Source: a candidate division TM6 bacterium GW2011_GWF2_28_16 (lineage in GTDB: Bacteria; Babelota; Babeliae; Babelales; UASB340). Taken from it: a stretch of DNA of 64,000 nucleotides. This document shows positions 240-59,762 of the stretch, one piece after another (position 1 is the stretch's first letter; each line of letters starts with the position of its first letter). The DNA lies in assembly GCA_000989185.1 (NCBI GenBank), contig LBNX01000004.1:23797-87796 (forward strand). The letters are read 5' to 3'. The translations under genes and the position numbers were made by a program. The notes beneath the pieces are model-generated. The model made no database searches and was not told the origin of the DNA. It was given only the letters and a program-made list of their open reading frames with translations.

Positions 240-467
240 TAAGACTCCTCTCTCGTTATAGTGTTAAACTTACTACCAACTCTTTTGAACATGTTTTTGC
301 GCCACACACGCAAAGTAGTGCCGCAGGCACTGTAGTACCGTGTTCGATACCATGCGATTAGGGTAGATATAAAAAAATATTATTTAAAGTATTTTTTTAA
401 TAATATAGGTTTGTCTTAAAGATAAAGGGTTTTTTGTGATTATAATTAATGTATTATTCTTGTACTT

Positions 468-500
468 GTTATGCTGAATTTGTTTCAGCATTTAGAAATA
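468..500 (+). repeat. F-type hairpin repeat, variant copy
   Basis: GTTATGCTGAA-tttgt-TTCAGCATTTAGAAATA. Same architecture as GTCATCCTGAA-cttgt-TTCAGGATCTAGATA at 59729, with paired stem changes (CC/GG to GC/GC). Confidence 0.55.
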
Positions 501-766: not shown

Positions 767-1645
767 TTAACGTGAGATAATTAACCAAATTATTAAAATA
801 ATTATTGGTATTGGCATATAATATGCAAATTTATATAATTTGCCAGATTCAGCAATTTGTTTAACTTTTTTGAAAATAAAATAAGAGATAATGCTAGCCC
901 AGCCTACGCACAAGGCTACGGCGGGCATGCTATAATTAGGTGAAATATAATAAATAAAGTTTTTATTTGTCATTATAATTTTATAAACCCCCAACAAAAA
1001 TCCAGCGCAAATAATTGGGAATTGTATTAAAAATGTTATTTCAAAATTTCTTTTTAAATTTTTATTTAATAAACTCGCAAAAAAGAATACTGCTGCAAAT
1101 CTTGATATACCTGGGATTAGTGCAAGCCCCTGCACAAGGCCAAGAAGGGCAAAATTTATCGCAATGTGATTATTCGCCAGGCGATAGCCTGGCTCTACCT
1201 CAATGCCGCCACGCCTTGCGGCGGGCTCAAATGCCAGCAATAAGCCTGTTATACAAAAGCCAGTGAGTAATAAAAAATTAGAATTATAAAAGCTTAAATT
1301 TGTGATATAAAATTTAAATAAAAGCCAGATTAAAACTGTTATGCTGTCAGCAATAAAAATAAGCGATATTATTTTAAAAAATATTTTATATAAATTTTTA
1401 TAAGAATCTTTTAAATATATTTTTTTATTAAGTATGCCTGATAATAATTTTTGTATAGGCCCCCACCAGTTTTTATAAAAAATTATTAATAATATAATTA
1501 TTGTTGGTAAGTGCAAAACGTAATCAAAATATTCTGGAATATTTATACCAAAAAGTTTTTCTGCTAATAAAAAATGGCCAGAGCTCGAGATTGGCAGTGA
1601 TTCTAATATTATTTGTATAAAAATAAATATGATAATATAAAACAT
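767..1645 (-). CDS. uppP: undecaprenyl-diphosphate phosphatase (BacA/UppP family)
   Basis: 292 aa polytopic membrane protein. N-terminal LPISSSGH matches the UppP LPxSSxGH motif, and GLALIPGISR matches the ALxPGxSRSG motif. Confidence 0.85.
   Translation of the reverse strand: MFYIIIFIFIQIILESLPISSSGHFLLAEKLFGINIPEYFDYVLHLPTIIILLIIFYKNWWGPIQKLLSGILNKKIYLKDSYKNLYKIFFKIISLIFIADSITVLIWLLFKFYITNLSFYNSNFLLLTGFCITGLLLAFEPAARRGGIEVEPGYRLANNHIAINFALLGLVQGLALIPGISRFAAVFFFASLLNKNLKRNFEITFLIQFPIICAGFLLGVYKIIMTNKNFIYYISPNYSMPAVALCVGWASIISYFIFKKVKQIAESGKLYKFAYYMPIPIIILIIWLIISR
1175..1228. repeat. GC-rich palindromic segment translated in frame within uppP
   Basis: 54 nt encoding EPAARRGGIEVEPGYRLA. Contains hairpin GCCAGGC-gata-GCCTGGC (1176-1193). 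Also contains GCCGCCACGCCTTGCGGCGGGC, which resembles the intergenic modules at 5291-5318 and 11891-11916. GC rises sharply here in an AT-rich gene. Confidence 0.5.
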
Positions 1646-2467: not shown

Positions 2468-2757
2468 CTTTATTAGCTTCATCGAGACACCCATTCCACA
2501 AACGGTGGATGGGTGCGATTTGAAGCGACACAAAGGGTTTTAAAAGGGTCGTCCCTTTTATTTGCGGGGATCGCAAAGGGGTTGTCAAAACATAACCCCT
2601 TTGCAAACGAAATAAATATTTTAATTAAAAAAGAGTTTATCCAGCCTTCGCGTAAAGCTTCCAACTTCGCCAAGGCTTCGATGGACAGGACGGCGGACAC
2701 AGTCAGTAAAGATGATTTTCTTATATCTGGATCCTGAAATAAATTCAGGATGACAAA
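2468..2757. repeat. mosaic of GC-rich hairpin modules (A inverted, C, D, E, B inverted, F inverted)
   Basis: 2468-2527 is the rc of module A. AAAAGGG-tcgt-CCCTTTT lies at 2542-2559 and TTTGCG-gggat-CGCAAA at 2561-2577. GCAAAGGGGTT-gtcaaaacat-AACCCCTTTGC lies at 2573-2604. 2641-2699 is the rc of module B (5154-5212). 2725-2756 is an F hairpin. Confidence 0.8.
2725..2756 (-). repeat. F-type hairpin repeat
   Basis: The rc reads GTCATCCTGAA-tttat-TTCAGGATCCAGATAT, with a perfect 8-bp stem. Confidence 0.75.
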
Positions 2758-3237: not shown

Positions 3238-4761
3238 ATGAACAAACTGTTAAAAGGTTTACTTGTCACAGCTTTAGTTGTTGGCACCGTAAACGCAGAT
3301 ACAAACAAAACATTCTTAATGCCTAGATCAGCTGGCGTTAATCTTCCAATGGAATACACAACATTTAATGAATTAATTCAACATAAAAATGGCGACTTCT
3401 TTGGAGCTCATTTCCAAGTAGTTCCATTTTATATGGATTCAACAAATGGTTCTGATATAGGTAAGTATTTTGGTATTGCTGGCAAAAATACATTTGTAAT
3501 TGGTAACTCAACTTTAGTTACAGCAGGTACAGCTGATATGAATTATGGATATATAATTCATAATATAGCAACTGCAGCAACTGCTGGTGTTGCAACATTG
3601 AATTTTGATCCAGAACTACAAGCTTATGGTGCAAGAATTGATTATTATCAAGATTTAGAAAAAATTCTTGATGGTTTATATTTAAAAGTTGCATTACCTA
3701 TAGTTCACACTGAAACAAAGATAAATAGAACAGTTTCATCTGTTACAGCAAGTAACAATTTGACAGAAGCACACTTGAATGAATATTTTGCTGGTACTTA
3801 TTCTCAAGATATTGCAGATGCAAATGCTCAAGCAGTTCTTGAACATGCAAAAAGAGATGGTTCTCATTCAGAAACATCTGTTGCAGACATTGATGTAGTA
3901 TTAGGCTACAAGATTTGGGACAAAGAAAAATACTCTTTTGCATTAAATCTTGGCTTAACAATTCCTGTTGGCAATGATGCTGATGGAGATTGGGCATTTG
4001 AACCAATAGTCGGCAATGGCGATCATTGGGGCTTTGGTGGTGGCTTAGATGCAATGGTAAGACTTTGGAAGAAGAATGATCAAGATATTAAATTAACATT
4101 AGCAGCTAACTATAGATATTTATTCTCTGGTACAGAAAAGAGAACATTGGGCTTAAATGATGTTGATGGTGTAGAAGTTCCTTTTGGCCAATATTATTTA
4201 GCAGCAACAATTGGTGATATACGTAGAACTCAACAATTACAACCTGTTGCAAATCTTTTAACACAAGATGTTAAAGTAGAGACAGGCAGCCAATTGGATG
4301 CAGAGTTATATTTTACATATAACAATGGTGGCTGGAATGTAGAACTTGGCTATAACCTATTCTACAAAGATTCTGAAGATGTAAGTCTTAAGAATGCTTG
4401 GTCAGACGGAGTATATGGTATAGCATTTATAGATCAAACATTTGCTACTGGTGGTGATGGTACTTTCGTAGCATCTGCAGATGGTACTGCCGCTGTTGGT
4501 GCTAATGGTGGTTCTCGTGGTCTTATAAACAATACTCCAACAAATACAGCTTTAGGCCAAACAACCAGAGCTTATGGTATCAATACCCATGTCGCAGAAT
4601 CAGCATCACAATTTACAAACAAGATCTTTGGTGGCGTTGGATATATTTTCAGAGAATGGGAATATCCAATGATGCTAAACATCAGTGGTGCATATGAATT
4701 TGCTGATCGTGATGCAATTGAAAATTGGCAAATCTGGGGTAAGATTGGCGTTAAATTTTAA
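3238..4761 (+). CDS. secreted outer-membrane beta-barrel candidate, OMP family paralogue 1
   Basis: 507 aa with signal peptide MNKLLKGLLVTALVVGTVNA and a C-terminal ...WGKIGVKF ending in Phe. Clear paralogy with 6994-8571 and 13647-15074 (TNKT(F/Y)L..RS, DIGKYFG, LQP.AN.LTQ.VK..(T/P)GS.LD). SD GGGGAAAG upstream. Confidence 0.65.
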   Translation: MNKLLKGLLVTALVVGTVNADTNKTFLMPRSAGVNLPMEYTTFNELIQHKNGDFFGAHFQVVPFYMDSTNGSDIGKYFGIAGKNTFVIGNSTLVTAGTADMNYGYIIHNIATAATAGVATLNFDPELQAYGARIDYYQDLEKILDGLYLKVALPIVHTETKINRTVSSVTASNNLTEAHLNEYFAGTYSQDIADANAQAVLEHAKRDGSHSETSVADIDVVLGYKIWDKEKYSFALNLGLTIPVGNDADGDWAFEPIVGNGDHWGFGGGLDAMVRLWKKNDQDIKLTLAANYRYLFSGTEKRTLGLNDVDGVEVPFGQYYLAATIGDIRRTQQLQPVANLLTQDVKVETGSQLDAELYFTYNNGGWNVELGYNLFYKDSEDVSLKNAWSDGVYGIAFIDQTFATGGDGTFVASADGTAAVGANGGSRGLINNTPTNTALGQTTRAYGINTHVAESASQFTNKIFGGVGYIFREWEYPMMLNISGAYEFADRDAIENWQIWGKIGVKF

Positions 4762-4935: not shown

Positions 4936-5404
4936 TTTATTTCGTCTTTAGGGGACTTCATTTTGGAAGTCCCCTATAACCCCTGCAAACAAAAGAGTAA
5001 ACTCTTTTGAATCTCTTGACGCTTCAAATCGCACCCCTCCACCGTTGGTGGAACGGGTGTCTCGATGAAGCTAATAAAGTACTTTTTATAAATTGTAGCA
5101 TTATATCTAGTGTTTAATTTAAAGATCTCCATATTAGACTTACCTTGTCTGCCTGTCCGCCGTCCTGTCCATCGAAGCCTTGGCAAAGTTGGAAGCCTTG
5201 TGCAAAGGCTGGAAGTGCCTAATGACGTTAGTCAGGAGGCACGAGTTAAGTCGTAATAAAGGGTTTTAAAAGGGTCTTCCCTTTTGACCTGCCCGCCATA
5301 GCCTTGGCGACGGCTGGGTTTACAGGGGTTATAGGGGACCATTAAATACATCGATGCCCTTTAGGCGTTGAGATGAAATCATGGTCCCCTAAAGACGAAA
5401 TAAA
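4936..5404. mobile_element. 469-bp composite palindromic element bounded by perfect inverted repeats (MITE-like, no ORF)
   Basis: Outer IR is TTTATTTCGTCTTTAGGGGAC (4936-4956) against GTCCCCTAAAGACGAAATAAA (5384-5404), 21/21. Inner IR is GTCCCCTATAACCCCTG (4969-4985) against CAGGGGTTATAGGGGAC (5323-5339), 17/17. The interior carries module A (4986-5099), module B (5154-5212), module C (5258-5286) and a CGCCATAGCCTTGGCGACGGC module. Confidence 0.6.
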
Positions 5405-5991: not shown

Positions 5992-6062
5992 AAATTTAAT
6001 AAAATTTAAATAAATTTAGCGTATTTTGATTATATAAATATTATAATTATTTGTTTTATAAC

Positions 6063-6112
6063 TTTTACTTGGCCTATAATTATACTTATTGCTATATTAA
6101 TTTTATTAAATA
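6063..6112 (+). repeat. 50-bp direct repeat, copy 1 (upstream of the MNT/HEPN pair)
   Basis: TTTTACTTGGCCTATAATTATACTTATTGCTATATTAATTTTATTAAATA. Matches 6875-6924 at 48/50. Confidence 0.85.
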
Positions 6113-6143
6113 TTTAAATGTTAAAAAAAACAGGAACATAAAT

Positions 6144-6458
6144 ATGAAAAATATTTTGGATGAAATAAAAAATAGATTAGTAAAAGTATATAGTCCTACA
6201 AAAATATATTTATTTGGCTCTAGCGCTTGGGGTAAGCAAACACCAGAAAGTGATTTAGACTTATTGATATTAATTCCAGAATCTAACGAAAGAAGTTACA
6301 AACGAGCAATTAAAGGAGAATTAGCTTTAGCAGATTTATTGGTTTCTAGAGATTTACTTGTTTATACAGAAAAAGAATTTGAATCTCTAGCAAGCGATGT
6401 AACTACTTTATGCTATAAAATAAAAAAAGAGGGAAAAGTAATCTATGCAAATGCATGA
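6144..6458 (+). CDS. nucleotidyltransferase-domain protein (MNT-type antitoxin)
   Basis: Start moved to the ATG at 6144, which has an AGGA SD. Contains the GS...D.D minimal nucleotidyltransferase motif (LFGSSAWGKQTPESDLDLLIL). Overlaps the downstream HEPN gene by 14 nt. Confidence 0.75.
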   Translation: MKNILDEIKNRLVKVYSPTKIYLFGSSAWGKQTPESDLDLLILIPESNERSYKRAIKGELALADLLVSRDLLVYTEKEFESLASDVTTLCYKIKKEGKVIYANA

Positions 6459-6864
6459 TGCATGGTTAAAAAAAGCTCATAGTGATTTATTAATAGCAAA
6501 AAAACTTTTTGATTTAAATGAGCTTGATTTATTTGATGGCGCAGCATATCACACTCAACAGTGTGCAGAAAAAGCTTTTAAATCATATTTGGCATATAAA
6601 AAACAAAATATTGAAAAAACACATAATTTAGTTTTATTGGTAAAATTATGTAGTCAGTATGATGCTGAATTTGAATCTTTATTGAATATATCAGCTATCT
6701 TAAATCCATATAGTATTAAATTTAGATATCCAGATGATGTAATGGTTCCAGAAAAGAGTGACTTAAAAGAGGCAATAGACTCTGCAGAAGTTATATTTAA
6801 ATTTATAAAGAAAAAAATTTCTGAGTTTAATACAGGACAGGGTAGTATATTTAGAAAATTATAA
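6445..6864 (+). CDS. HEPN-domain protein (toxin of the HEPN/MNT pair)
   Basis: 139 aa all-helical protein directly coupled to the MNT gene. The layout and size are typical of HEPN partners. Confidence 0.65.
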   Translation: MQMHDAWLKKAHSDLLIAKKLFDLNELDLFDGAAYHTQQCAEKAFKSYLAYKKQNIEKTHNLVLLVKLCSQYDAEFESLLNISAILNPYSIKFRYPDDVMVPEKSDLKEAIDSAEVIFKFIKKKISEFNTGQGSIFRKL

Positions 6865-6874
6865 ACTTTATAAA

Positions 6875-6924
6875 TTTTACTTGGTCTATAAATATACTTA
6901 TTGCTATATTAATTTTATTAAATA
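6875..6924 (+). repeat. 50-bp direct repeat, copy 2 (upstream of OMP paralogue 2)
   Basis: 48/50 identity with 6063-6112. The two copies bracket the complete MNT/HEPN operon. Confidence 0.85.
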
Positions 6925-6926
6925 GG

Positions 6927-6958
6927 ATTAGATCACGGCTCGGCGGCCGGGATGACAT
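6927..6958 (-). repeat. F-type hairpin repeat (GC-stem subtype)
   Basis: The rc reads GTCATCCCGGC-cgccga-GCCGTGATCTAA, with one stem mismatch. Confidence 0.65.
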
Positions 6959-6993
6959 ACTGTGTGATAGTATTTTTAAAAGAAAGAGAGAGT

Positions 6994-8571
6994 ATGAACA
7001 AAATTTCAAAAAATTTTATATTTAAATTTTTATTATTTTTAAATTTATTTTTTATAAATAATATTTATTCGACAGAAACAAATAAAACTTATCTTTTATC
7101 AAGATCTACTGGTGTAAACTTATCAATGGAGTACACGACTTTTAATAATTTTGTAAATTACAGAGATGATAAGCGTGCCCGGGATAATAAAGACAATAGC
7201 TTTGGGGCGCATATACAAGCAACGCCATATTATTTAGAATCGAATAATGGCAAAGATATAGGTAAATATTTTGGTTTTGATGATAAAAATATTTTACGAA
7301 TAGCTAGAAATAATATTGCTGGTTATGATCTAGATTTTAGATATATGGTGCATGATAATGTAAATACAGCAAATACAAATGCAATTGTAAAACTTGATCC
7401 AAAGTTTGAATCGTATGGTTTGCGTCTTGATTATTATCAAAAATTAGAAAAATTTCTCGATGGTTTATATTTTAAAATAGCTATACCAATATCTTATGTT
7501 AAAACAGATGTGCGATTAAATATTGCTGATCAGGCTGGATATTTTGTTGCTGGAACAAACACAGATTTGTATAAATATTTTGATGGCACTTATAATTTAC
7601 CTGTAGGTAATGCCCGAGCTCAAGCTGCTCTTGAATATGCAAAAATTTCTCAACATAAATTTTCAAAGACAAGCGTTGCAGATTTAGATTTAGTTTTAGG
7701 TTGCAAGTTTATAGATAGAGATAAATACTATGCAATAATAAATTTTGCATTAACAATACCAACAAATAACGAAGCTGGTGCCGGATATATGTTTGATGTA
7801 AATGTTGGCAATGGTAGTTATTGGGCTTTGGGTGGTGGGCTCGAAGGTATGATGCGCTTGTTTGGAAAAACAAATGATCATAATTTAAATTTAGTTGCAG
7901 TTGCAAATTATAGATATTTATTCGAAGGCAGAGCTGAGCGAACTATGGGTTTATTAAATCCAGATGGTACACGTGCAAACTGGGGCCAATATTATTTGGT
8001 TGGCGAAATTGGTACAGCTGTAAGTACACAACAGTTACAGCCTGCTGCAAATGTTTTGACACAAAGAGTAAAACTTGCTCCGGGTAGCCAATTAGATTCT
8101 ATGATCTATTTAAATTATAAATATTCTGGATTTACAGCAGAATTAGGTTATAACTTTTTCTGGCGTGATGACGAACAAATTAGTTTAAAAAATGAATGGC
8201 AAAATAATGTTTATGGCGTAGCAATTTTAGATCAAGATATGACTATTGCTGGAGGCGCAACTTTTGCAAACACTGGTTTTGCAGCTACAGCTGTACCTGT
8301 TAACGGTGGCTCTATGGGATATATTAATAATGACCCAGATAACACAGCTTTTACTGCTGCAGGAACAGTTGCAACTAGAGCTTATGGTTTAGATGAAGGT
8401 GTAGGTGCTGCCAGTTCACAAAATACACACAAAATTTTTGCTGGTTTGGGTTATGGCTTTTATGATTTTAAATTTCCCTGCATGCTTGGCATCGGCGGAG
8501 CATATGAATTTAATGGCGATGATGGAATTGAAAATTGGCAAGTTTATGGCAAAGTGGGATTAAAGTTTTAA
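6994..8571 (+). CDS. secreted outer-membrane beta-barrel candidate, OMP family paralogue 2
   Basis: Start moved to the ATG at 6994, after AGAAAGAGAGAG. Has a signal peptide and a C-terminal ...YGKVGLKF. Collinear with paralogue 1 along its whole length. Confidence 0.65.
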   Translation: MNKISKNFIFKFLLFLNLFFINNIYSTETNKTYLLSRSTGVNLSMEYTTFNNFVNYRDDKRARDNKDNSFGAHIQATPYYLESNNGKDIGKYFGFDDKNILRIARNNIAGYDLDFRYMVHDNVNTANTNAIVKLDPKFESYGLRLDYYQKLEKFLDGLYFKIAIPISYVKTDVRLNIADQAGYFVAGTNTDLYKYFDGTYNLPVGNARAQAALEYAKISQHKFSKTSVADLDLVLGCKFIDRDKYYAIINFALTIPTNNEAGAGYMFDVNVGNGSYWALGGGLEGMMRLFGKTNDHNLNLVAVANYRYLFEGRAERTMGLLNPDGTRANWGQYYLVGEIGTAVSTQQLQPAANVLTQRVKLAPGSQLDSMIYLNYKYSGFTAELGYNFFWRDDEQISLKNEWQNNVYGVAILDQDMTIAGGATFANTGFAATAVPVNGGSMGYINNDPDNTAFTAAGTVATRAYGLDEGVGAASSQNTHKIFAGLGYGFYDFKFPCMLGIGGAYEFNGDDGIENWQVYGKVGLKF

Positions 8572-8587
8572 AAATTGCATTTTTTAT

Positions 8588-9988
8588 TTACTTTCCTGCC
8601 AGCTCTTGCGCAATCAAGTTAACTCGTCCAGCGCCGATAGTTAAAAGTAAATCGTTATCTTGTAAAATATTTTGTACATCTTTTGTAATAGATGCATAAT
8701 CAGGATAATAAATTACTTTGATATTTTTATTTTGAGCTTGAATATCTTGTGCAAGTTTATAACTATTAATACCTTCTATAGGTGTTTCGCTTGCAGGATA
8801 AATATCTGTGATATATAAAGTTTTAATTTGTGTATTTTGTGAGAATACATTTACAAAGTCTTGCCATAATTTTTGCGTACGTGTAAATCTATGTGGCTGA
8901 AAGATTACATGTAAATTTTTATTGGCTCTTTTTTGTGCAATCAAAAGAGTATTATAAATTTCTGTAGGGTGATGACCGTAATCATCGAAAATTTCAGCAC
9001 CATTACATGTGCCTTTAAATTCAAAACGTCTTTCGACGCCTTTAAATGTTTCTAGTGCATTTTTTATTTTTTCAAAAGAGAGTTCAAGCTCAAGAGCGAG
9101 TGCAATGGCTGCAAGTGAGTTTAAAATATTGTGATGGCCTGGAACGTTAAGTGTGATTTGTCCTAATAAAAATTTGGGTTTTTTATAAATATTTTTATTA
9201 TTTAAATAAACATTATAAACAGAATTTGCTTTATTAAGTTCTAAAACTTCACAAGTAATATCAGCATCATCAGAAACACCATATTTTATAATATTAATAT
9301 CTGGTAGTGGCAGCATAGAGCGTATATTTTCATTATCTATGCATAAAATTGCTTTACCAAAAAATGGTAGTCTTTCTAAAAAATTTTTAAAAGTATTTTT
9401 TATATCGTCTAAATCTTTATAAGTATCTAAATGTTCTAAGTCTATGTTTGTAACAACAGCTATACATGGGCTTAAAAATAAAAATGATCTATCAGATTCA
9501 TCGGCTTCGGCAATTAAAATATCACTTTTGCCAAGTTTTGCATTTAGCGAAATACTTTTTAATACACCACCAATAATTATCGTTGGATCATAATTCGCTT
9601 CGAGTAATATATGCGAAATCATAGAAGTTGTTGTTGTTTTGCCATGCGCACCGGTAACGGCAATGCCGTGCTTCATACGCATTATTTCTGCAAGCATTTT
9701 GGCTCTTGGTATTACAGGGATATTTTTATTTATTGCTTCTATAACTTCTGGGTTATCGTTGTGTACCGCAGAAGAATAAACTAAAACGTCAGCATCGTTA
9801 ATATGCGTTTTATCATGATCTTTGTAAATTATACAGCCAATATCACGCAAGTGATTTATAATATTTGAGTTTATATCTTTATCGCAACCAGATACTATAT
9901 AGCCTTGCAAACGTAATATTTCTGCAATGCCACTCATGCCTATGCCGCCTATGCCTATAAAATGTATATGCTGATGTTTTTTGTACAT
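8588..9988 (-). CDS. murC: UDP-N-acetylmuramate--L-alanine ligase
   Basis: Start at MYKKHQHIHFIGIGGIGMSGIAE. Mur ligase ATP-binding motif GAHGKTTTTS present. The 12-codon extension in the ORF track is rejected. Confidence 0.9.
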   Translation of the reverse strand: MYKKHQHIHFIGIGGIGMSGIAEILRLQGYIVSGCDKDINSNIINHLRDIGCIIYKDHDKTHINDADVLVYSSAVHNDNPEVIEAINKNIPVIPRAKMLAEIMRMKHGIAVTGAHGKTTTTSMISHILLEANYDPTIIIGGVLKSISLNAKLGKSDILIAEADESDRSFLFLSPCIAVVTNIDLEHLDTYKDLDDIKNTFKNFLERLPFFGKAILCIDNENIRSMLPLPDINIIKYGVSDDADITCEVLELNKANSVYNVYLNNKNIYKKPKFLLGQITLNVPGHHNILNSLAAIALALELELSFEKIKNALETFKGVERRFEFKGTCNGAEIFDDYGHHPTEIYNTLLIAQKRANKNLHVIFQPHRFTRTQKLWQDFVNVFSQNTQIKTLYITDIYPASETPIEGINSYKLAQDIQAQNKNIKVIYYPDYASITKDVQNILQDNDLLLTIGAGRVNLIAQELAGK

Positions 9989-11675: not shown

Positions 11676-11912
11676 GTTTTTTGCCCAGGGCATTAGAAGC
11701 AAGTCGGTAGCATTCGCGTAGGCAAATTTGAAGCTATCTCAAATATAAAATATTTAAAATTATATTTTCTAGATAGCGTCAAAAAAAACAATATCAATTT
11801 CAGGTCCGCCTTCGTTAAAACTTCGGCGGGACAGCCTACGCAACTGTGCTATTAAAATCTTTTTAAATTATAATACCGGTACTGGCATGCCAGCCGTAGC
11901 CTTGGCGTAGGC
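11676..11912. repeat. GC-rich hairpin modules flanking the 3' side of tRNA-Ala
   Basis: TTTGCC...GGCAAA at 11680-11726. GTCCGCC...GGCGGGAC at 11804-11831. CAACTGTGCTA (11841-11851) differs by one base from TAACTGTGCTA at 732-742. CCAGCCGTAGCCTTGGCGTAGGCTGG (11890-11915) abuts and overlaps the tRNA 3' end. Confidence 0.6.
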
Positions 11913-11988
11913 TGGTGGAGCTAACCGGGGTCGAACCGGTGACCTCATGAATGCCATTCATGCGTTCTACCAACTGAACTATAGCCCC
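11913..11988 (-). tRNA. tRNA-Ala (anticodon GGC), CCA encoded
   Basis: The rc folds as a cloverleaf. Acceptor stem GGGGCTA/TAGCTCC carries the G3:U70 alanine identity pair. D arm is GTTC/GAAC. Anticodon stem CATGA/TCATG has loop ATGGCAT. T arm is ACCGG-TTCGACC-CCGGT, and the 3' end is ACCA. Confidence 0.9.
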
Positions 11989-12126: not shown

Positions 12127-13629
12127 ATGGAAAATTTATTTAAAATAATTAAAAAATTAAACCCAATATTAAAAGAAATAATAAATAATGGTTCTGTACC
12201 GTATCTTGTTGGTGGTAGCGTGCGAGATTTAGTTTTAAATTTAGAAACAAAAGATCTTGATATAGAAGTTCATAAAATATCTATAAAAGATTTAGAAAAA
12301 ATTTTAAAAAAATTTGGACATGTGCGTCTTGTTGGTCAAAAATTTGGTGTTTTAAAAATAGATGGAATAAACGTAGATTGGTCATTACCCAGAAAAGATA
12401 GTATTGGCAGAAAGCCAAAAGTTATAATAAAAAAAGATATTTCTATAAAAGATGCGCTTGTACGGCGTGATTTAACTATTAATGCAATGGCTATAGATTT
12501 GCGGGAGCTTTTAAAAAATAAAAATAATTTTAAAAAAATAATTATTGACCCATTTGGTGGCCTAAAAGATATTAAAAATAAAAAATTAAGAGTTATTGAT
12601 GCTAATTTTTTTGTTCAGGATCCTTTAAGATTATTTAGAGTTATGCAATTTGCAGCACGTTTTAATATGGCGCCAGATAAAAATTTAAATAATATTTGTA
12701 AAACTATGAGTTTGCAGGACCCAGCAACAGGAAAATTAATTTCGCGTGAACGAATTTTTGATGAAATTAAAAAATTATTATTAAAGAGTAAACAACCAAG
12801 TATTGGCTTTAGATGGCTATTAAAAATAAATAGATTAAAAGATATTTTTCCTGAAATTTATAATTTAATTGGTGTTAAACAGAAAAAAGAATATCATCCA
12901 GAGGGTGATGTGTTTGAGCACACTATGCAGTGTATAGATGTTGCTGCAAATCTTGATATTTATGAAACAGAAAACGAAAAATTCTTGATTATTTTAGCGC
13001 TTTTGTGTCACGATTTTGGCAAGCCAAAAGTTACAGATAAAAATTTATCAGCAATAGGGCACGAAAAAGAGGGCGTAGAAATTGCAAAAAAATTTTTAAA
13101 GCGAATTACGCGCGATAAAAATTTGATAAACTCTGTGTGCAAGTTGGTTTTGTATCACATGCAGCCAGCGCAATTATTAAAAAGTAATGCAAAAATTAGT
13201 GCATATAAAAGATTAGCTATAAAACTTGCCACAGATATAAACATGAAACAACTTGGCATTGTTTGGCTTGCGGATAATTTGGGACGGGTAGCGTATCGCT
13301 CGGGTAGACGCTTCGATACACCTCGCGTTGTTCGGCACTCAGCGCGAACGGGAAGTTTGAAAAAACACGCCGTGCAGGCTTTGTCATCCCGGGCAAGGAC
13401 CCGGGATCTAGAAAATAAAATAATAAGTGAGTTTAAACAATATTTAAAAATAATAAAAAATTTAAATATAGAAACAGGTCCGGAAAAGCCAATTTTACTT
13501 GGCCGTGATATTTTGGATAAAGTAAAACCAGGGCCTCAAATGGGTAAAATTTTAAAATGTGCTTATAAAATACAAATAGAGGAGGGTGTTAAAGATAAGG
13601 AGACGTTAAAGAAAAGAGTATTAAAGTAG
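12127..13629 (+). CDS. cca: CCA-adding enzyme / poly(A) polymerase family nucleotidyltransferase with HD domain
   Basis: N-terminal YLVGGSVRD...DLDIEV matches the class II nucleotidyltransferase GGxVRD...DxD motif. The HD-domain motif LLCHDFGK is present. Confidence 0.85.
   Translation: MENLFKIIKKLNPILKEIINNGSVPYLVGGSVRDLVLNLETKDLDIEVHKISIKDLEKILKKFGHVRLVGQKFGVLKIDGINVDWSLPRKDSIGRKPKVIIKKDISIKDALVRRDLTINAMAIDLRELLKNKNNFKKIIIDPFGGLKDIKNKKLRVIDANFFVQDPLRLFRVMQFAARFNMAPDKNLNNICKTMSLQDPATGKLISRERIFDEIKKLLLKSKQPSIGFRWLLKINRLKDIFPEIYNLIGVKQKKEYHPEGDVFEHTMQCIDVAANLDIYETENEKFLIILALLCHDFGKPKVTDKNLSAIGHEKEGVEIAKKFLKRITRDKNLINSVCKLVLYHMQPAQLLKSNAKISAYKRLAIKLATDINMKQLGIVWLADNLGRVAYRSGRRFDTPRVVRHSARTGSLKKHAVQALSSRARTRDLENKIISEFKQYLKIIKNLNIETGPEKPILLGRDILDKVKPGPQMGKILKCAYKIQIEEGVKDKETLKKRVLK
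13282..13413 (+). repeat. composite GC-rich palindromic element translated in frame within cca (ends in an F hairpin)
   Basis: 44 codons (about G386-E429, ...VAYRSGRRFDTPRVVRHSARTGSLKKHAVQALSSRARTRDLE). 13381-13413 is TTGTCATCCCGGG-caagga-CCCGGGATCTAGAA with a perfect stem. The 5' part shares CTCAG(C/G)GCGAACG(G/A)GA with 18462-18540. Confidence 0.75.
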
Positions 13630-13646: not shown

Positions 13647-15074
13647 ATGAAAAAAAATATTTTGTTATTATTAGTGCTTAGCTTATTTGCAGCTAACATA
13701 TCTGCATATACAAATAAAACATATATGCGCCCACAAGATAGTTCTACGTATTTACCAGATAGATTTAGAGTAAATGATTATTATAAAGCTGATTTTAAAA
13801 TGCCTAGCTTAATAGGTAAATTAGATATTACTGCTTATCATTTTCATTCTATAAGTAAAGATAAAATGGGAAGATATTTTGGTGTGAATGAAAAAAGTGA
13901 ATTTAATTTTATTGGTGATCAAACCAATGATGATATGGATATTGACTACAGATATTTAATTTCAAATTATTCTGCACATACTAATTATTCTGCAAAAATG
14001 AGTCTTGATCCAAAAACACAATATGCAGGCTTTAATGCATCTGTTATATTAGATTTATCTAGAATAAATAAACATTTAGCGTTTAAGATTAATGTTCCAT
14101 ATCAAAGAGTACATACAGATTTGCGTTCAAATTTTTCTTCTTCTAATGCAAGTTTGATTAAAGATTATTTAGCGGGTGATTATTCTTTAAATGTTGCAGC
14201 AGGTACTCGTAATCAAGAAGCATTAAGATATGCAAAAATTACTGATCAACAAGAAAAATTAGGCATTCCATTTATGGATTTTTGTCTTGCATATAACACT
14301 CATAACGAAGATGGTTTAATTAATACAGTAAAACTTGGATTTATTTCAACAGTAGAAAAAAAAGCTACAGCTGAATATCTTTTTGAACCAATATTAGGGA
14401 ACAATAATCACTTTGGTATTGATGTTGGTATTGAAGGTAGCAAAAGACTTTTTGATGGTAATGGTCATAGAAGTTTTGTAGATTTTGTTTGGGATTTAAA
14501 TTATAAATATTTATTCTCTAATACACAGTTTAGAACTTTGGGTATAAAGGGTGCAAACTGGGGACAATATTATTTATTAGGTAAAGAGGGCGTTTCTGGT
14601 GCATTTATTCCTGCTGCCAACGTTTTGACTCAAAATGTAAAAGTTGAACCAGGTAGTCACCTTGATTTAAATTTAGAATTATTATTTGGATATCATGCAT
14701 CTAGAGTTTCTGTTGGTGGTAATATTATTGCAAGACAAGAAGAAGAATTAGATTTTAAAAATAATCTTGCGACTCAAACTTATGGTGTAGTTACACCAGG
14801 AACATCTTCTGCTGTAAACTTTGATTTAAGTACTAATGTTGGACTTGGTAATTATACAACATATGCTTTAAGCAACGATAATATAGATTTAAAAGCTGCT
14901 CAAGCTCCAGGTATATTTGCTTACAAAGTTTATTTGCAGTATGCATATGATTATGTAAAACGAAATACAGAAAGAATGTTTACAGTCGCAACAGGTGTAT
15001 CTCTTAACATTACAGATCAGAATGCTCATTTTGACGGCATTGGGTGTTGGTTTAAGATGGCTGCATATTTTTAA
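13647..15074 (+). CDS. secreted outer-membrane beta-barrel candidate, OMP family paralogue 3 (divergent)
   Basis: 475 aa with signal peptide and TNKTYMRP start of the mature protein. Contains RYFG, NWGQYYLL and PAANVLTQNVKVEPGSHLD, and ends in Phe. Starts 17 nt after cca. Confidence 0.6.
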   Translation: MKKNILLLLVLSLFAANISAYTNKTYMRPQDSSTYLPDRFRVNDYYKADFKMPSLIGKLDITAYHFHSISKDKMGRYFGVNEKSEFNFIGDQTNDDMDIDYRYLISNYSAHTNYSAKMSLDPKTQYAGFNASVILDLSRINKHLAFKINVPYQRVHTDLRSNFSSSNASLIKDYLAGDYSLNVAAGTRNQEALRYAKITDQQEKLGIPFMDFCLAYNTHNEDGLINTVKLGFISTVEKKATAEYLFEPILGNNNHFGIDVGIEGSKRLFDGNGHRSFVDFVWDLNYKYLFSNTQFRTLGIKGANWGQYYLLGKEGVSGAFIPAANVLTQNVKVEPGSHLDLNLELLFGYHASRVSVGGNIIARQEEELDFKNNLATQTYGVVTPGTSSAVNFDLSTNVGLGNYTTYALSNDNIDLKAAQAPGIFAYKVYLQYAYDYVKRNTERMFTVATGVSLNITDQNAHFDGIGCWFKMAAYF

Positions 15075-18461: not shown

Positions 18462-18540
18462 CCCTTAGGTTATGCTCGTTCGAGTTCCCTTTGACTACGC
18501 TCAGGGCGAACGAGACGCTCCTGTTCAAGTCTTACCCTTT
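18462..18540. repeat. GC-rich palindromic element between ftsH and rpmB
   Basis: CTCGTTCG (18475-18482) pairs with CGAACGAG (18507-18514). Shares the core CTCAGGGCGAACGAGA with the cca insert. GC is clearly elevated against the AT-rich spacer. Confidence 0.6.
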
Positions 18541-18640
18541 TATGGGTATTAATAAATAACATTATACAATTTTATTATGTTTATAATAACAAAAATTTTA
18601 TTTTTTAAAACACTTATAATACTAAAATTATTAACTAATT

Positions 18641-21877: not shown

Positions 21878-22714
21878 CTATTGTCTAAAATCGATAGTAA
21901 AAATTTTACCACATAAAAAACCATAAAATTTAAATTGTTTAATAGCATTTATTATACTTAGATCATAAATTAAAATATTTGATTTTTCTGTAAAATTAAA
22001 TTCTGTTACATTACCATTACTGTCTGTAGCTAATTTTAATTTGCATTCGGTTCCTTTTGGTACGCCTACTGGTGGGTGCCAAGTTGTTTTTACGATTCCT
22101 TTAATTTGTTCTCCAGCTGCTTTAAGGTTAGGATCTTGCTCTCCTGTTTCTTCTAGATTAAATACTAGTTCTTGATTTTCTTGGATATTATTTTCTGGAG
22201 TTATTTCTGGTTCTAATTCTTTTTCTGGTTCTGGGGCCTGTTCAGGTTCTTGGGCTTTTTCTTTTTTTTGGTCTATTTTTTTAGGTTTTTCTTCTTTTTT
22301 TTGTTTAACTTTTTTCTTTTTTTTCTCTTGTGATTCTTTTATTTTAGACTCTTGTTCGAGCTTTTTTTGTTTTGCGAGTTCTAGATCACGGGTCTTAGCC
22401 TGGGATGACAATATCTTTGCCTTTTTTTGTGCTTCTATTTTTGCCTTGCGAGCTTTTTCGGCTTTAATTTTTGCATTTCGTTTTTCTTTTAATTCTTTTT
22501 CTTGAGCGATTCTTTTTGCATACCAGTTAGTTTGTTTATTTTCTTTATTAGATTTAAATAATGCTTGAGTTGGGATTTTAGAGTGAGCTCCATATACTAA
22601 AAAATGTTTGTCTATTTTTTTATTATATAGTCCTGTAAAAAGGGCAATAAGTATTATTGTTATATGTATCCAAAAAGAACGTATTATATATTTTTTTAGT
22701 ATTTTATCTTCCAT
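21878..22714 (-). CDS. tolA: TolA-like protein (N-terminal anchor, K/E-rich spacer, C-terminal globular domain)
   Basis: 278 aa with TM helix IIRSFWIHITIILIALFTGL and a long KEKxxAK-rich region. Called mainly by its position in the tol cluster. Confidence 0.55.
   Translation of the reverse strand: MEDKILKKYIIRSFWIHITIILIALFTGLYNKKIDKHFLVYGAHSKIPTQALFKSNKENKQTNWYAKRIAQEKELKEKRNAKIKAEKARKAKIEAQKKAKILSSQAKTRDLELAKQKKLEQESKIKESQEKKKKKVKQKKEEKPKKIDQKKEKAQEPEQAPEPEKELEPEITPENNIQENQELVFNLEETGEQDPNLKAAGEQIKGIVKTTWHPPVGVPKGTECKLKLATDSNGNVTEFNFTEKSNILIYDLSIINAIKQFKFYGFLCGKIFTIDFRQ
22379..22411 (-). repeat. F-type hairpin repeat translated in frame within tolA-like gene
   Basis: The sense strand reads TTGTCATCCCAGG-ctaaga-CCCGTGATCTAGAA and encodes LSSQAKTRDLE. 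Orientation and reading frame match the cca copy, which encodes LSSRARTRDLE. Confidence 0.7.
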
Positions 22715-39474: not shown

Positions 39475-39482
39475 AAAATGTG

Positions 39483-39543
39483 GTAGCCCAGCGATGTCCG
39501 TCGAAGCCTGTGGCGAAGACTGGATGCGCAAGCGCTGGGCTAC
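39483..39543. repeat. GC-rich clamp hairpin containing a module B-like core, between convergent lpxC and rseP
   Basis: GTAGCCCAGCG (39483-39493) pairs with CGCTGGGCTAC (39533-39543), 11/11. The interior TGTCCGTCGAAGCCTGTGGCGAAGACTGGATGC resembles module B TGTCCATCGAAGCCTTGGCGAAGTTGGAAGC. Confidence 0.65.
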
Positions 39544-39560
39544 ATGATAACTTATATTAG

Positions 39561-59728: not shown

Positions 59729-59762
59729 TTGTCATCCTGAACTTGTTTCAGGATCTAGATAT
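59729..59762 (+). repeat. F-type hairpin repeat (reference copy), immediately after the rplQ stop
   Basis: TTGTCATCCTGAA-cttgt-TTCAGGATCTAGATAT with a perfect 8-bp stem. It begins on the nucleotide after the TAA. Confidence 0.8.

Follow-up and report, generated by a model that had tools for sequence, protein, structure and literature searches.

How does GC-rich DNA that resembles intergenic hairpin repeats come to lie in frame inside cca, the gene of a predicted CCA-adding enzyme, in an AT-rich bacterium? The gene is part of a stretch of 64,000 nucleotides (hereafter the window; 29.7% GC) from contig LBNX01000004.1 of candidate division TM6 bacterium GW2011_GWF2_28_16, a member of the Dependentiae, which are commonly regarded as intracellular or parasitic. 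We report that the block in cca, described in an initial annotation as a palindromic composite element, is not one palindrome but combines modules of two unrelated repeat families with a further 27 nt whose origin is uncertain, and that it was gained in the lineage of the window. We favour the explanation, to which we assign a probability of about 0.78, that hairpin repeats of a selfish kind inserted where the cca product has a permissive loop and are now translated passively.

The host gene and the gain of the block

The cca open reading frame (ORF; 12127-13629, forward strand, 500 aa in the ORF list of the window) has a GC content of ~28%. Its product carries the Pfam domains PF01743 (PolyA_pol head), PF12627 (RNA-binding region) and PF01966 (HD), and its NCBIfam matches, all to CCA enzymes, do not reach the equivalog cut-offs. 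Using its AlphaFold model (mean confidence score, pLDDT, 89.8), Foldseek retrieved the CCA-adding enzyme of T. maritima and the CC-adding enzyme of A. aeolicus with E values of about 1e-14 (7e-15 for 5hc9 and 3h37). On domain content and predicted fold the product is a class II CCA-adding enzyme with an HD domain, of the bacterial multifunctional type. That the gene is essential, as had been stated, is an assumption, since in the sole tRNA gene of the window, tRNA-Ala (11913-11988), the CCA end is already encoded. The cca product matches the entry of candidate division TM6 (Dependentiae) bacterium GW2011_GWF2_28 with 100% identity and was found on three contigs from several source collections, so that a one-off assembly error is unlikely.

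Over positions 13250-13399 the GC fraction is 0.55-0.57 compared with 0.2-0.35 elsewhere in cca, and 13278-13414 is among the largest GC islands of the window. The ORF and the GC profile thus bear out the in-frame, stop-free, GC-rich segment of the initial annotation, which had placed it at 13282-13413 (44 codons). The end and the open frame stand: from codon 386, starting at 13282, to the end of E429 at 13413 the peptide GRVAYRSGRRFDTPRVVRHSARTGSLKKHAVQALSSRARTRDLE is free of stops. The insert itself begins later and comprises 42 codons (Table 1). According to protein and DNA alignments it stands where the closest relative has nine codons (SVKNKILNK), so that 33 aa are added on balance. The peptide is strongly basic, with 9 Arg and a net charge of about +8. 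Three of the six frames of the block are stop-free, and the open frame is therefore unremarkable in itself.

When 30 orthologues from Dependentiae are aligned, 28 of the 29 other sequences have a gap opposite residues 388-429. A survey of the 120 closest cca orthologues gave a similar picture: the block is absent from 118/119, nothing similar occurs elsewhere among them, and the exception at the site, P0003, has an unrelated AT-rich insert (+17 aa). The closest relative, P0002, is encoded on contig L001, whose synteny with the window extends from cca to exbD; here the cca product is 83% identical in alignment, and the DNA has the nine AT-rich codons where the window has 42. The claim that the segment is lineage specific is supported by these comparisons, as no homologous segment was seen in the orthologues compared. 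L001 also lacks a hairpin present in the tolA-like gene of the window (+7 codons in the window, KILSSQAKTRDLE vs AKAQKLE) and a 70-nt GC-rich element of the rpmB/ftsH spacer, and it has no GC islands outside ftsH. None of the three elements (cca block, tolA hairpin, rpmB/ftsH element: 0/3) is found in the outgroup L002. Because both L001 and L002 are without the elements, a gain in the lineage of the window at no fewer than three sites within about 11 kb is indicated.

Two explanations that do not invoke inserted and translated repeats can be judged from these data. The segment might be missing from the mature protein, as an intervening sequence or through ribosome skipping, or cca might be a pseudogene or mis-assembled; GC-rich hairpin inserts in an AT-rich genome indeed resemble the mitochondrial 'byp' case taken up below. 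However, the length is a multiple of three and the frame lacks stops, so removal is not needed; outside the block the ORF is undamaged and gives a high-confidence model, and the identical sequence is present on the three contigs from several sources. Moreover, Rfam gave no intron or RNA family match (whole window at the gathering threshold, locus with E up to 10: only tRNA-Ala and two chance-level matches), Pfam detected no intein-like domain in cca, and all other genic copies of the repeats (tolA, other cca genes, uppP) are in frame. We consider this explanation very improbable. The other is ordinary loop expansion by slippage or duplication, the likeness to repeats being due to chance. The length at the site does vary among orthologues (+17 aa of AT-rich origin in P0003, +10 in P0009 and P0011), yet the abrupt jump to 57% GC, together with exact box matches to two multi-copy families and to a published hairpin motif, none of them seen in shuffled sequence, leaves it next to no credit.

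Two repeat families in one block

The 3' module of the block is a hairpin of what we call the F family, TTGTCATCC-CGGGCAAGGACCCG-GGATCTAGAA, with a perfect stem of 7-8 bp. It is the only part of the block that is more stable than shuffled sequence (z = -2.1, compared with -1.0 for the whole block and +0.2 for the 5' 66 nt); the description of the block as hairpin-forming consequently holds for this module and not for the whole or its 5' half. Searching with fuzzy boxes we found six F copies in the 64 kb, in which the boxes TGTCAT and ATCTAGA are constant while the stems differ with compensating changes. The fuzzy boxes are needed, as a scan for perfect stems gave five hairpins in the window and only one F copy among them (cca, 13386-13407). 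The further copies that had been reported near 468, 2725, 6927, 22379 (tolA) and 59729 were all recovered. The cca hairpin had been called a perfect copy: this applies to the flanking boxes, there being no identical copy, and the closest match, in tolA, agrees at 29/33 bases. The tolA-like product has a TonB_2 C-terminal domain, and its gene has TolB and ExbD/TolR as neighbours. The pattern GTCATCC-N15-26-GATCTA, a wider form of the search suggested along with the initial annotation, has three exact matches in the window against none in 100 shuffles.

Hairpin repeats termed Ssn-related motifs (SRMs) flank genes of Ssn, a GIY-YIG nuclease family, and the repeat-ssn-repeat layout resembles an insertion sequence (IS); binding of Ssn to the hairpin is confined to single-stranded DNA and the cut falls upstream, and the classic dRS3 repeat is contained in NTS (CGTCATTCCCGCGMAVGCGGGAATCYRG), the Neisseria representative of these repeats (Chenal et al. 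2025, PMC11893778). The SRM search sequence, HGTCWYN(0-2)YYVSBRHN(0-5)WNVSBRGN(0-2)RNCYNB, matched the window once, at 13382-13411 (TGTCATCCCGGGCAAGGACCCGGGATCTAG), compared with a mean of 0.03 in shuffles (n=100). The cca hairpin also shows the arrangement of a hairpin core between oriented, non-palindromic flanks, with TTGTCAT conserved upstream, ATCTAGA conserved downstream and co-varying stems. By this sequence test the 3' module belongs to the published SRM class.

In a scan of one genome per GTDB species, TTGTCATCC-N12-16-GGATCTAGA was found at 120 or more loci in many phyla, with about 90 chance matches estimated for the whole collection. The loci listed belong to Dependentiae, Patescibacteria, Alpha-, Gamma- and Deltaproteobacteria, Rickettsiales, Planctomycetota, Bacteroidota, Omnitrophota and others. 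Among the 122 matches listed, 52 form a perfect stem of no fewer than 7 bp and most of the others are one arm of an inverted doublet. F units also lie in frame in genes of other phyla among these loci, including one gene of a Rickettsiales metagenome-assembled genome (MAG).

Two observations on the genic F hairpins may be added. At both (13381-13413 and 22379-22411) the GTCAT strand is the coding strand and is read in the same frame, as LSSxAxTRDLE; two cases are too few for a bias, and four of the six hairpin frames are open anyway. If an Ssn exists, the strand cut at these hairpins would be the non-template strand. An internal transcription terminator at the cca hairpin was considered and rejected, the sense strand downstream being A-rich rather than T-rich.

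The 5' part of the block (13293-13353 overall) represents a different family. This S family, as we define it here from its sequences, consists of TCGATAC-hairpin-CACTCAGnnCGAACGG, with TTCGACAAGCTCAGGnnGAnCGG as the simple form and with the second box also occurring as (T/C)ACTCAGnnCGAACGG. A metagenome scan with TCGATAC-N12-32-CTCAGNNCGAACGG gave at least 120 entries and 162 listed matches. Among these, positions outside the search pattern are conserved, i.e. CCT or GCT before the first box (136/162) and TA or CA before the second (150/162), and an inner stem of at least 5 bp is present in 91/162 compared with 2/162 after shuffling. An inverted GTATCG lies no more than 60 nt upstream in 68 of the 157 S units listed, and many loci have the head-to-head layout. 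The limited literature that was covered held no published description of the family.

The copy in cca, GCT-TCGATAC...CA-CTCAGCGCGAACGG, has both boxes as well as the conserved bases that were not part of the search, with 18 nt between TCGATAC and CACTCAGCGCGAACGG, and GTATCG is present 14 nt upstream of TCGATAC. Its best inner stem is 2 bp, i.e. the inner hairpin typical of the family is lacking. The local alignment with a complete inverted pair in L002, in the spacer after the next gene, scored 41 compared with 17 +/- 3 for shuffles, and in L186 the inner part is nearly identical to that of the cca unit. Judged by its boxes and their layout, the cca S unit is a decayed member of the family and a truncated head-to-head doublet. 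The core that had been noted as common to the 5' half and the L28/ftsH spacer element, CTCAG(C/G)GCGAACG(G/A), is indeed found at 13338 and at 18500.

Between the two modules lie an AT-rich middle, which aligns equally well to L001 (AGTGTAAAAAATAAA) and to the hairpin loop in L002 (GGGAAAGTGAAATAC), and a GC-rich linker for which no significant match was found in the window or in loci L001-L123. Neither the window nor these loci hold a second copy of the entire block; each module, on the other hand, has many copies. As modules of both families also occur in intergenic DNA, the view that an intergenic type of repeat sits inside a gene is upheld.

Table 1. The block in cca, its modules and related elements (positions refer to the window unless a locus is named)
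Feature	Position	Strand	Remarks
Whole inserted block	13288-13413	+	codons V388-E429, 42 aa, 126 nt, 57% GC
Inverted S-family head remnant, GTAGC-GTATCG	13288-13298	+	GTATCG is the inverted partner of TCGATAC, 14 nt downstream
S-family unit, GCT-TCGATAC-acctcgcgttgttcgg-CACTCAGCGCGAACGG-ga	13310-13353	+	boxes kept, inner hairpin decayed
AT-rich middle, AGTTTGAAAAAACA (S-L-K-K-H)	13354-13367	+	ancestral loop codons or S-element spacer
GC-rich linker, CGCCGTGCAGGCT	13368-13380	+	no family match
F hairpin, TTGTCAT-CCCGGG-caagga-CCCGGG-ATCTAGAA	13381-13413	+	stem arms 13386-13393 and 13400-13407; peptide LSSRARTRDLE
In-frame F hairpin in tolA-like gene (21878-22714)	22379-22411	-	peptide LSSQAKTRDLE
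Intergenic F hairpin, AT-rich stem, TGTCATCC-TGAACTTGTTTCA-GGATCTAGA	59730-59759	+	identical variant in many phyla
Intergenic F hairpin	467-496	+	box search
Intergenic F hairpin	2726-2755	-	box search
Intergenic F hairpin	6927-6957	-	box search
Intergenic S-family element, CCCTTTGACTACGCTCAGGGCGAACGAG core, rpmB (L28)/ftsH spacer	18473-18545	+	absent from the L001 and L002 spacer
S-bracketed GIY-YIG units	L129 150-568; L142 1253-1714; L161 8064-8444; L186 307-771; L244 1330-1785		no SRM match

Site of insertion, recurrence in genes and association with GIY-YIG nucleases

The AlphaFold model places the insert between helices 373-391 and 411-445, in the tail region that follows the HD domain. 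The pLDDT values across residues 391-420 are 49, 41 and 52 compared with >90 in nearly all other blocks of the protein. As modelled, the insertion site is a permissive loop of low confidence that separates two helices of the tail domain. In-frame S units are also present in further cca genes of Dependentiae, in a different loop, near residues 129-135 in the numbering of the window protein, as a single unit in L257 and L259 and as a full inverted pair in L258; the P0020 gene has an apparent decayed S pair, judged from the peptide only. Many lineage-specific inserts are present in Dependentiae uppP orthologues, and their peptides (VILNLFQDP, VIPGLIRDL, PFALSAEQRE and RQAHHER) are translations of F or S units. 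For uppP an alignment of the Dependentiae orthologues was used, as the solved E. coli UppP is too distant to show insertion. In L258 the cca gene with the in-frame S pair is preceded, about 840 nt upstream, by a weak TnpB/Cas12f-like fragment (OrfB_IS605; 407-844), with a gene at 905-1435 between them, which is probably coincidental.

The uppP/BacA gene of the window itself (767-1645, reverse strand) has two GC-rich, hairpin-prone in-frame stretches in variable regions, at 891-933 and 1110-1248. They comprise SMPAVALCVGWAS, a net addition of 6 aa, and EPAARRGGIEVEPGYRLANNH, which lies in a variable loop; the same loops hold far larger repeat-derived inserts in other Dependentiae.

Might the cca insert have been kept as useful? 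An Arg-rich loop could add tRNA-binding surface, or the SRM hairpin could act as an Ssn cleavage or regulatory site; in the regulatory variant recombination would be limited at the locus, like NTS in Neisseria, which is compatible with a selfish origin. The strongly basic peptide does belong to the tail region of an enzyme that binds tRNA, no F copy in the window other than that of cca fits the strict SRM motif with a perfect GC stem, and NTS/Ssn modulates transformation in Neisseria (PMC11893778). The insert is, however, confined to one sampled lineage, its 5' unit is decaying, the loop has no defined fold in the model, and tblastn found no ssn gene in the window. The shared orientation and frame of the cca and tolA hairpins would suit a function, but two cases do not establish a preference when four of six hairpin frames are open. 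Taken together, we regard a selected function as distinctly unlikely.

What, then, moved the repeats? ORFs within 2 kb of the repeats were clustered for 240 loci of other genomes, and one recurrent neighbour alone is specific to the repeats, a gene for a single-domain GIY-YIG protein of ~95 aa (PF01541); no recurrent transposase, and no Y1 (IS200-like) family, was found near the repeats in these loci. Inverted S units bracket such genes in L129, L142, L161, L186 and L231, and F units bracket genes of a second GIY-YIG clade in L019, L054 and L071. The S-type and F-type clades are 35% identical over 72 aa, and NCBIfam does not separate them. In reverse tests, GIY-YIG homologues were picked by name and blind to repeats (8 loci; S type from Herbaspirillum, Novosphingobium and Methylophilus, F type from Pseudomaricurvus, Polaromonas and Photobacterium). 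The cognate repeat was present within about 300 nt in all 8, with one unit or more within 250 nt per locus. For loci with detected units, the density within 250 nt of the GIY-YIG gene is 1.2-5.7 units per kb vs 0-0.8 elsewhere; under the density filters used, no units were counted near the gene in L019, L236 and L237. SRMs of the published type flank F-type GIY-YIG genes only, with 0 matches in 10 of 11 S-type loci. As the S-type genes are without SRM flanks, the S family falls outside the published SRM definition.

The S-type clade (FYVYxLxCSDxSYYxGHTDxLExR...), of which the gene in L244 is from Herbaspirillum seropedicae, lies between CCGTTCGnnCTGAG..GTATCGA and TCGATAC..CTCAGnnCGAACGG, forming an IS-like unit of about 400 bp, and may represent a second Ssn-like system. 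In a syntenic group from GC-rich genomes (L161 8077-9168, L182 183-1307, L170 and L132) the GIY-YIG ORF stays open through the 3' S unit (KSFDTGLRQAQPLLRTNG), and the read-through frame continues, by eye, into a SpoU/TrmJ-like methyltransferase-like ORF (364-429 aa, stop to stop). Most small GIY-YIG homologues from metagenomes are on contigs of 0.5-2 kb, consistent with multi-copy repeats breaking assemblies.

Since both families occur elsewhere as inverted flanks of tiny GIY-YIG genes, the modules have most likely been spread as non-autonomous derivatives of units with the IS-like layout repeat-nuclease-repeat. We propose the following course of events. After the split from the closest sampled relative, as the comparison shows, hairpin modules were inserted in the cca loop, in tolA and in the L28/ftsH spacer, the 5' part of the cca block corresponding to a truncated head-to-head S doublet and the 3' part to a solo F hairpin, an SRM of the NTS/dRS3 type. 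The nuclease may have acted in trans, or the modules may have arrived by recombination with incoming DNA. Purifying selection would then retain only insertions that are stop-free, a multiple of three in length and situated in tolerant surface loops; a stop-free state comes easily to GC-rich DNA. The block would be transcribed and translated as a mostly disordered basic segment that leaves the enzyme core unaffected, with no function required, and its 5' unit appears to be decaying already. Of this, the data show the lineage-specific gain, the repeat identity of both halves, the in-frame state and the low-confidence loop, and likewise the recurrence in other genes and lineages and the GIY-YIG association of both families elsewhere.

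Several points weigh against this course of events. Neither a target-site duplication nor a clean insertion boundary was seen in the three filled-versus-empty comparisons (cca, tolA and L28/ftsH), and no intermediate allele was found among 3389 homologues, which accommodates one composite insertion or two to three separate ones. A tblastn search gave no GIY-YIG gene in the 64-kb window or in the Dependentiae loci L001-L004 and L053 (L257-L259 were outside the search), and a mobilising enzyme resident in the organism of the window is hypothetical. The F copies of the window are about 80-88% alike, i.e. old copies with no sign of recent activity. For the 5' module, the assignment draws on its boxes and one significant local alignment, with no excess of folding over shuffles. 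Finally, we infer translation of the block from the open frame.

Some of these points would suit real repeats with another spreader, such as RAYT (IS200-like), gene conversion or illegitimate recombination, or DNA uptake with microhomology-mediated repair. Besides the lack of a nuclease gene in the window and of target-site duplications, the tolA hairpin can in part be aligned with sequence that was there beforehand (GCTAA...CTAGAA), which is what microhomology would produce, and transposition is only hypothesised in the Ssn paper (PMC11893778). On the other side stand the lack of any recurrent transposase around the 240 loci, where GIY-YIG genes are the sole repeat-specific neighbour, and the pairing of each GIY-YIG clade with its own repeat family. 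A different spreader hence appears rather unlikely to us.

Known systems compared, and further repeats of the window

A known case of repeats inside bacterial genes is that of the Rickettsia palindromic elements (RPEs), reportedly described by Ogata et al. in 2000 and 2002. RPEs (reviewed in PMC10969869) resemble the present case in that short repeat DNA lies in frame in several unrelated housekeeping genes of an AT-rich bacterium, at tolerated surface sites, where it adds a peptide and decays. The cca block is such an in-frame, lineage-specific insertion at a structurally tolerated site, and the likeness in behaviour that had been suggested is thus apparent. It is not one long palindrome of ~100-150 bp, being composed of units of 30-45 nt from two families, and it differs also in that the host phylum is Dependentiae and the units occur in many bacterial phyla vs one genus. 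By analogy of behaviour the cca block would represent the RPE phenomenon in another phylum; its identity as an RPE is not claimed. To call the repeats unrelated to those of Rickettsia is nevertheless unsafe, given the SRM match, the presence of more than 300 SRMs in Rickettsia and Wolbachia (PMC11893778) and the boxes in Rickettsiales MAGs.

With regard to the NTS/SRM and Ssn system, the 3' hairpin in cca fits the SRM sequence (oriented GTCAT box, GC stem, ATC(Y)RG tail) and F-type GIY-YIG genes are flanked as published. In contrast, two of the six F copies of the window are in frame in genes whereas about 2% of NTS are intragenic in N. meningitidis (PMC11893778), no ssn gene is visible in the window, and F variants with AT stems as well as the entire S family lie outside the published motif. 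REP sequences, REPINs with RAYT, and BIMEs (Bertels and Rainey 2011, PMC3116915; Delihas 2011, PMC3184786) share with our repeats the oriented box, the variable stem, the occurrence as single units or inverted doublets, and the location beside the gene of a putative spreader. The differences are a GIY-YIG nuclease of ~95 aa vs a Y1 transposase and a GTCAT or TCGATAC box vs GTAG; REPs are, moreover, extragenic by definition. Neither the terminal inverted repeats nor the target-site duplication of a MITE, a miniature transposable element with inverted repeats, were seen, the cca block being without a matching pair of ends. Intragenic ERIC and RU sequences of enterobacteria (Delihas 2007, PMC2759123) are likewise small, normally intergenic repeats that occasionally lie in ORFs and add peptide, but they concern other families, hosts and sizes and have no associated nuclease known. 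Apart from PMC11893778, we found nothing relevant in the literature on palindromic repeats of Dependentiae or on GIY-YIG proteins with REP sequences or MITEs.

Outside bacteria, the cca block resembles the GC-rich hairpin modules in coding regions of very AT-rich mitochondrial genomes. Mobile GC clusters and 'byp' inserts are known from yeast mitochondrial genes, and in Magnusiomyces the GC-rich 'byp' is skipped by the ribosome. Unlike these, the cca case is bacterial, in frame and stop-free, so that no translational bypass is needed.

These comparisons imply that RPE-like behaviour is not peculiar to Rickettsia and also affects housekeeping proteins of Dependentiae. As the repeat families are tied to a candidate enzyme family (Ssn-type GIY-YIG), the entry of repeats into genes becomes experimentally approachable, and the S family points to a second pairing of repeat and nuclease beyond the published motif definition. 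Many Arg/Gly/Pro-rich lineage-specific inserts and short hypothetical ORFs in metagenome assemblies would be translated units of this kind, to be masked ahead of alignment, phylogeny and structure prediction. More tentatively, and with less than even odds, the S family and its own GIY-YIG clade of ~95 aa could form a second Ssn-like system in many phyla and, at the same time, coding palindromes of the Rickettsia type could be a general outcome of GIY-YIG-associated hairpins invading AT-rich genomes, with Dependentiae as the second phylum in which this occurs on a large scale (cca, tolA, uppP).

The window contains further repeats. A third GC-rich palindromic family, of the CCAGCCTACGCCAAGGCTACGGCTGG type, is present at 891-933, 2664-2708, 5136-5188, 5272-5340, 11883-11915 and 39478-39547, and one of its copies has its start inside the CCA end that tRNA-Ala encodes (11913-11915). 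In L002 the family is present at 1386-1445, 4947-5013 and 9686-9730, perhaps within a trmD-fusion gene. Hairpins of a fourth family, CACCCnTTCCACC-loop-GGTGGAAnGGGTG, occur at 636-665, 2488-2517 and 5015-5071. The longer repeats that contain them are 91-95% identical (504-639 with 2207-2342, and 594-699 with 4988-5093) and flank paralogous genes whose products are large proteins of a secreted or outer-membrane-like kind (3238-4761, 6952-8571 and 13647-15074). Finally, direct repeats of 68 nt with 90% identity (6045-6112 and 6857-6924) flank a nucleotidyltransferase/HEPN-like gene pair (6051-6458 and 6445-6864, as read from the sequence), directly followed by the F hairpin at 6927-6957, and the region 6045-6924 looks like an inserted cassette.

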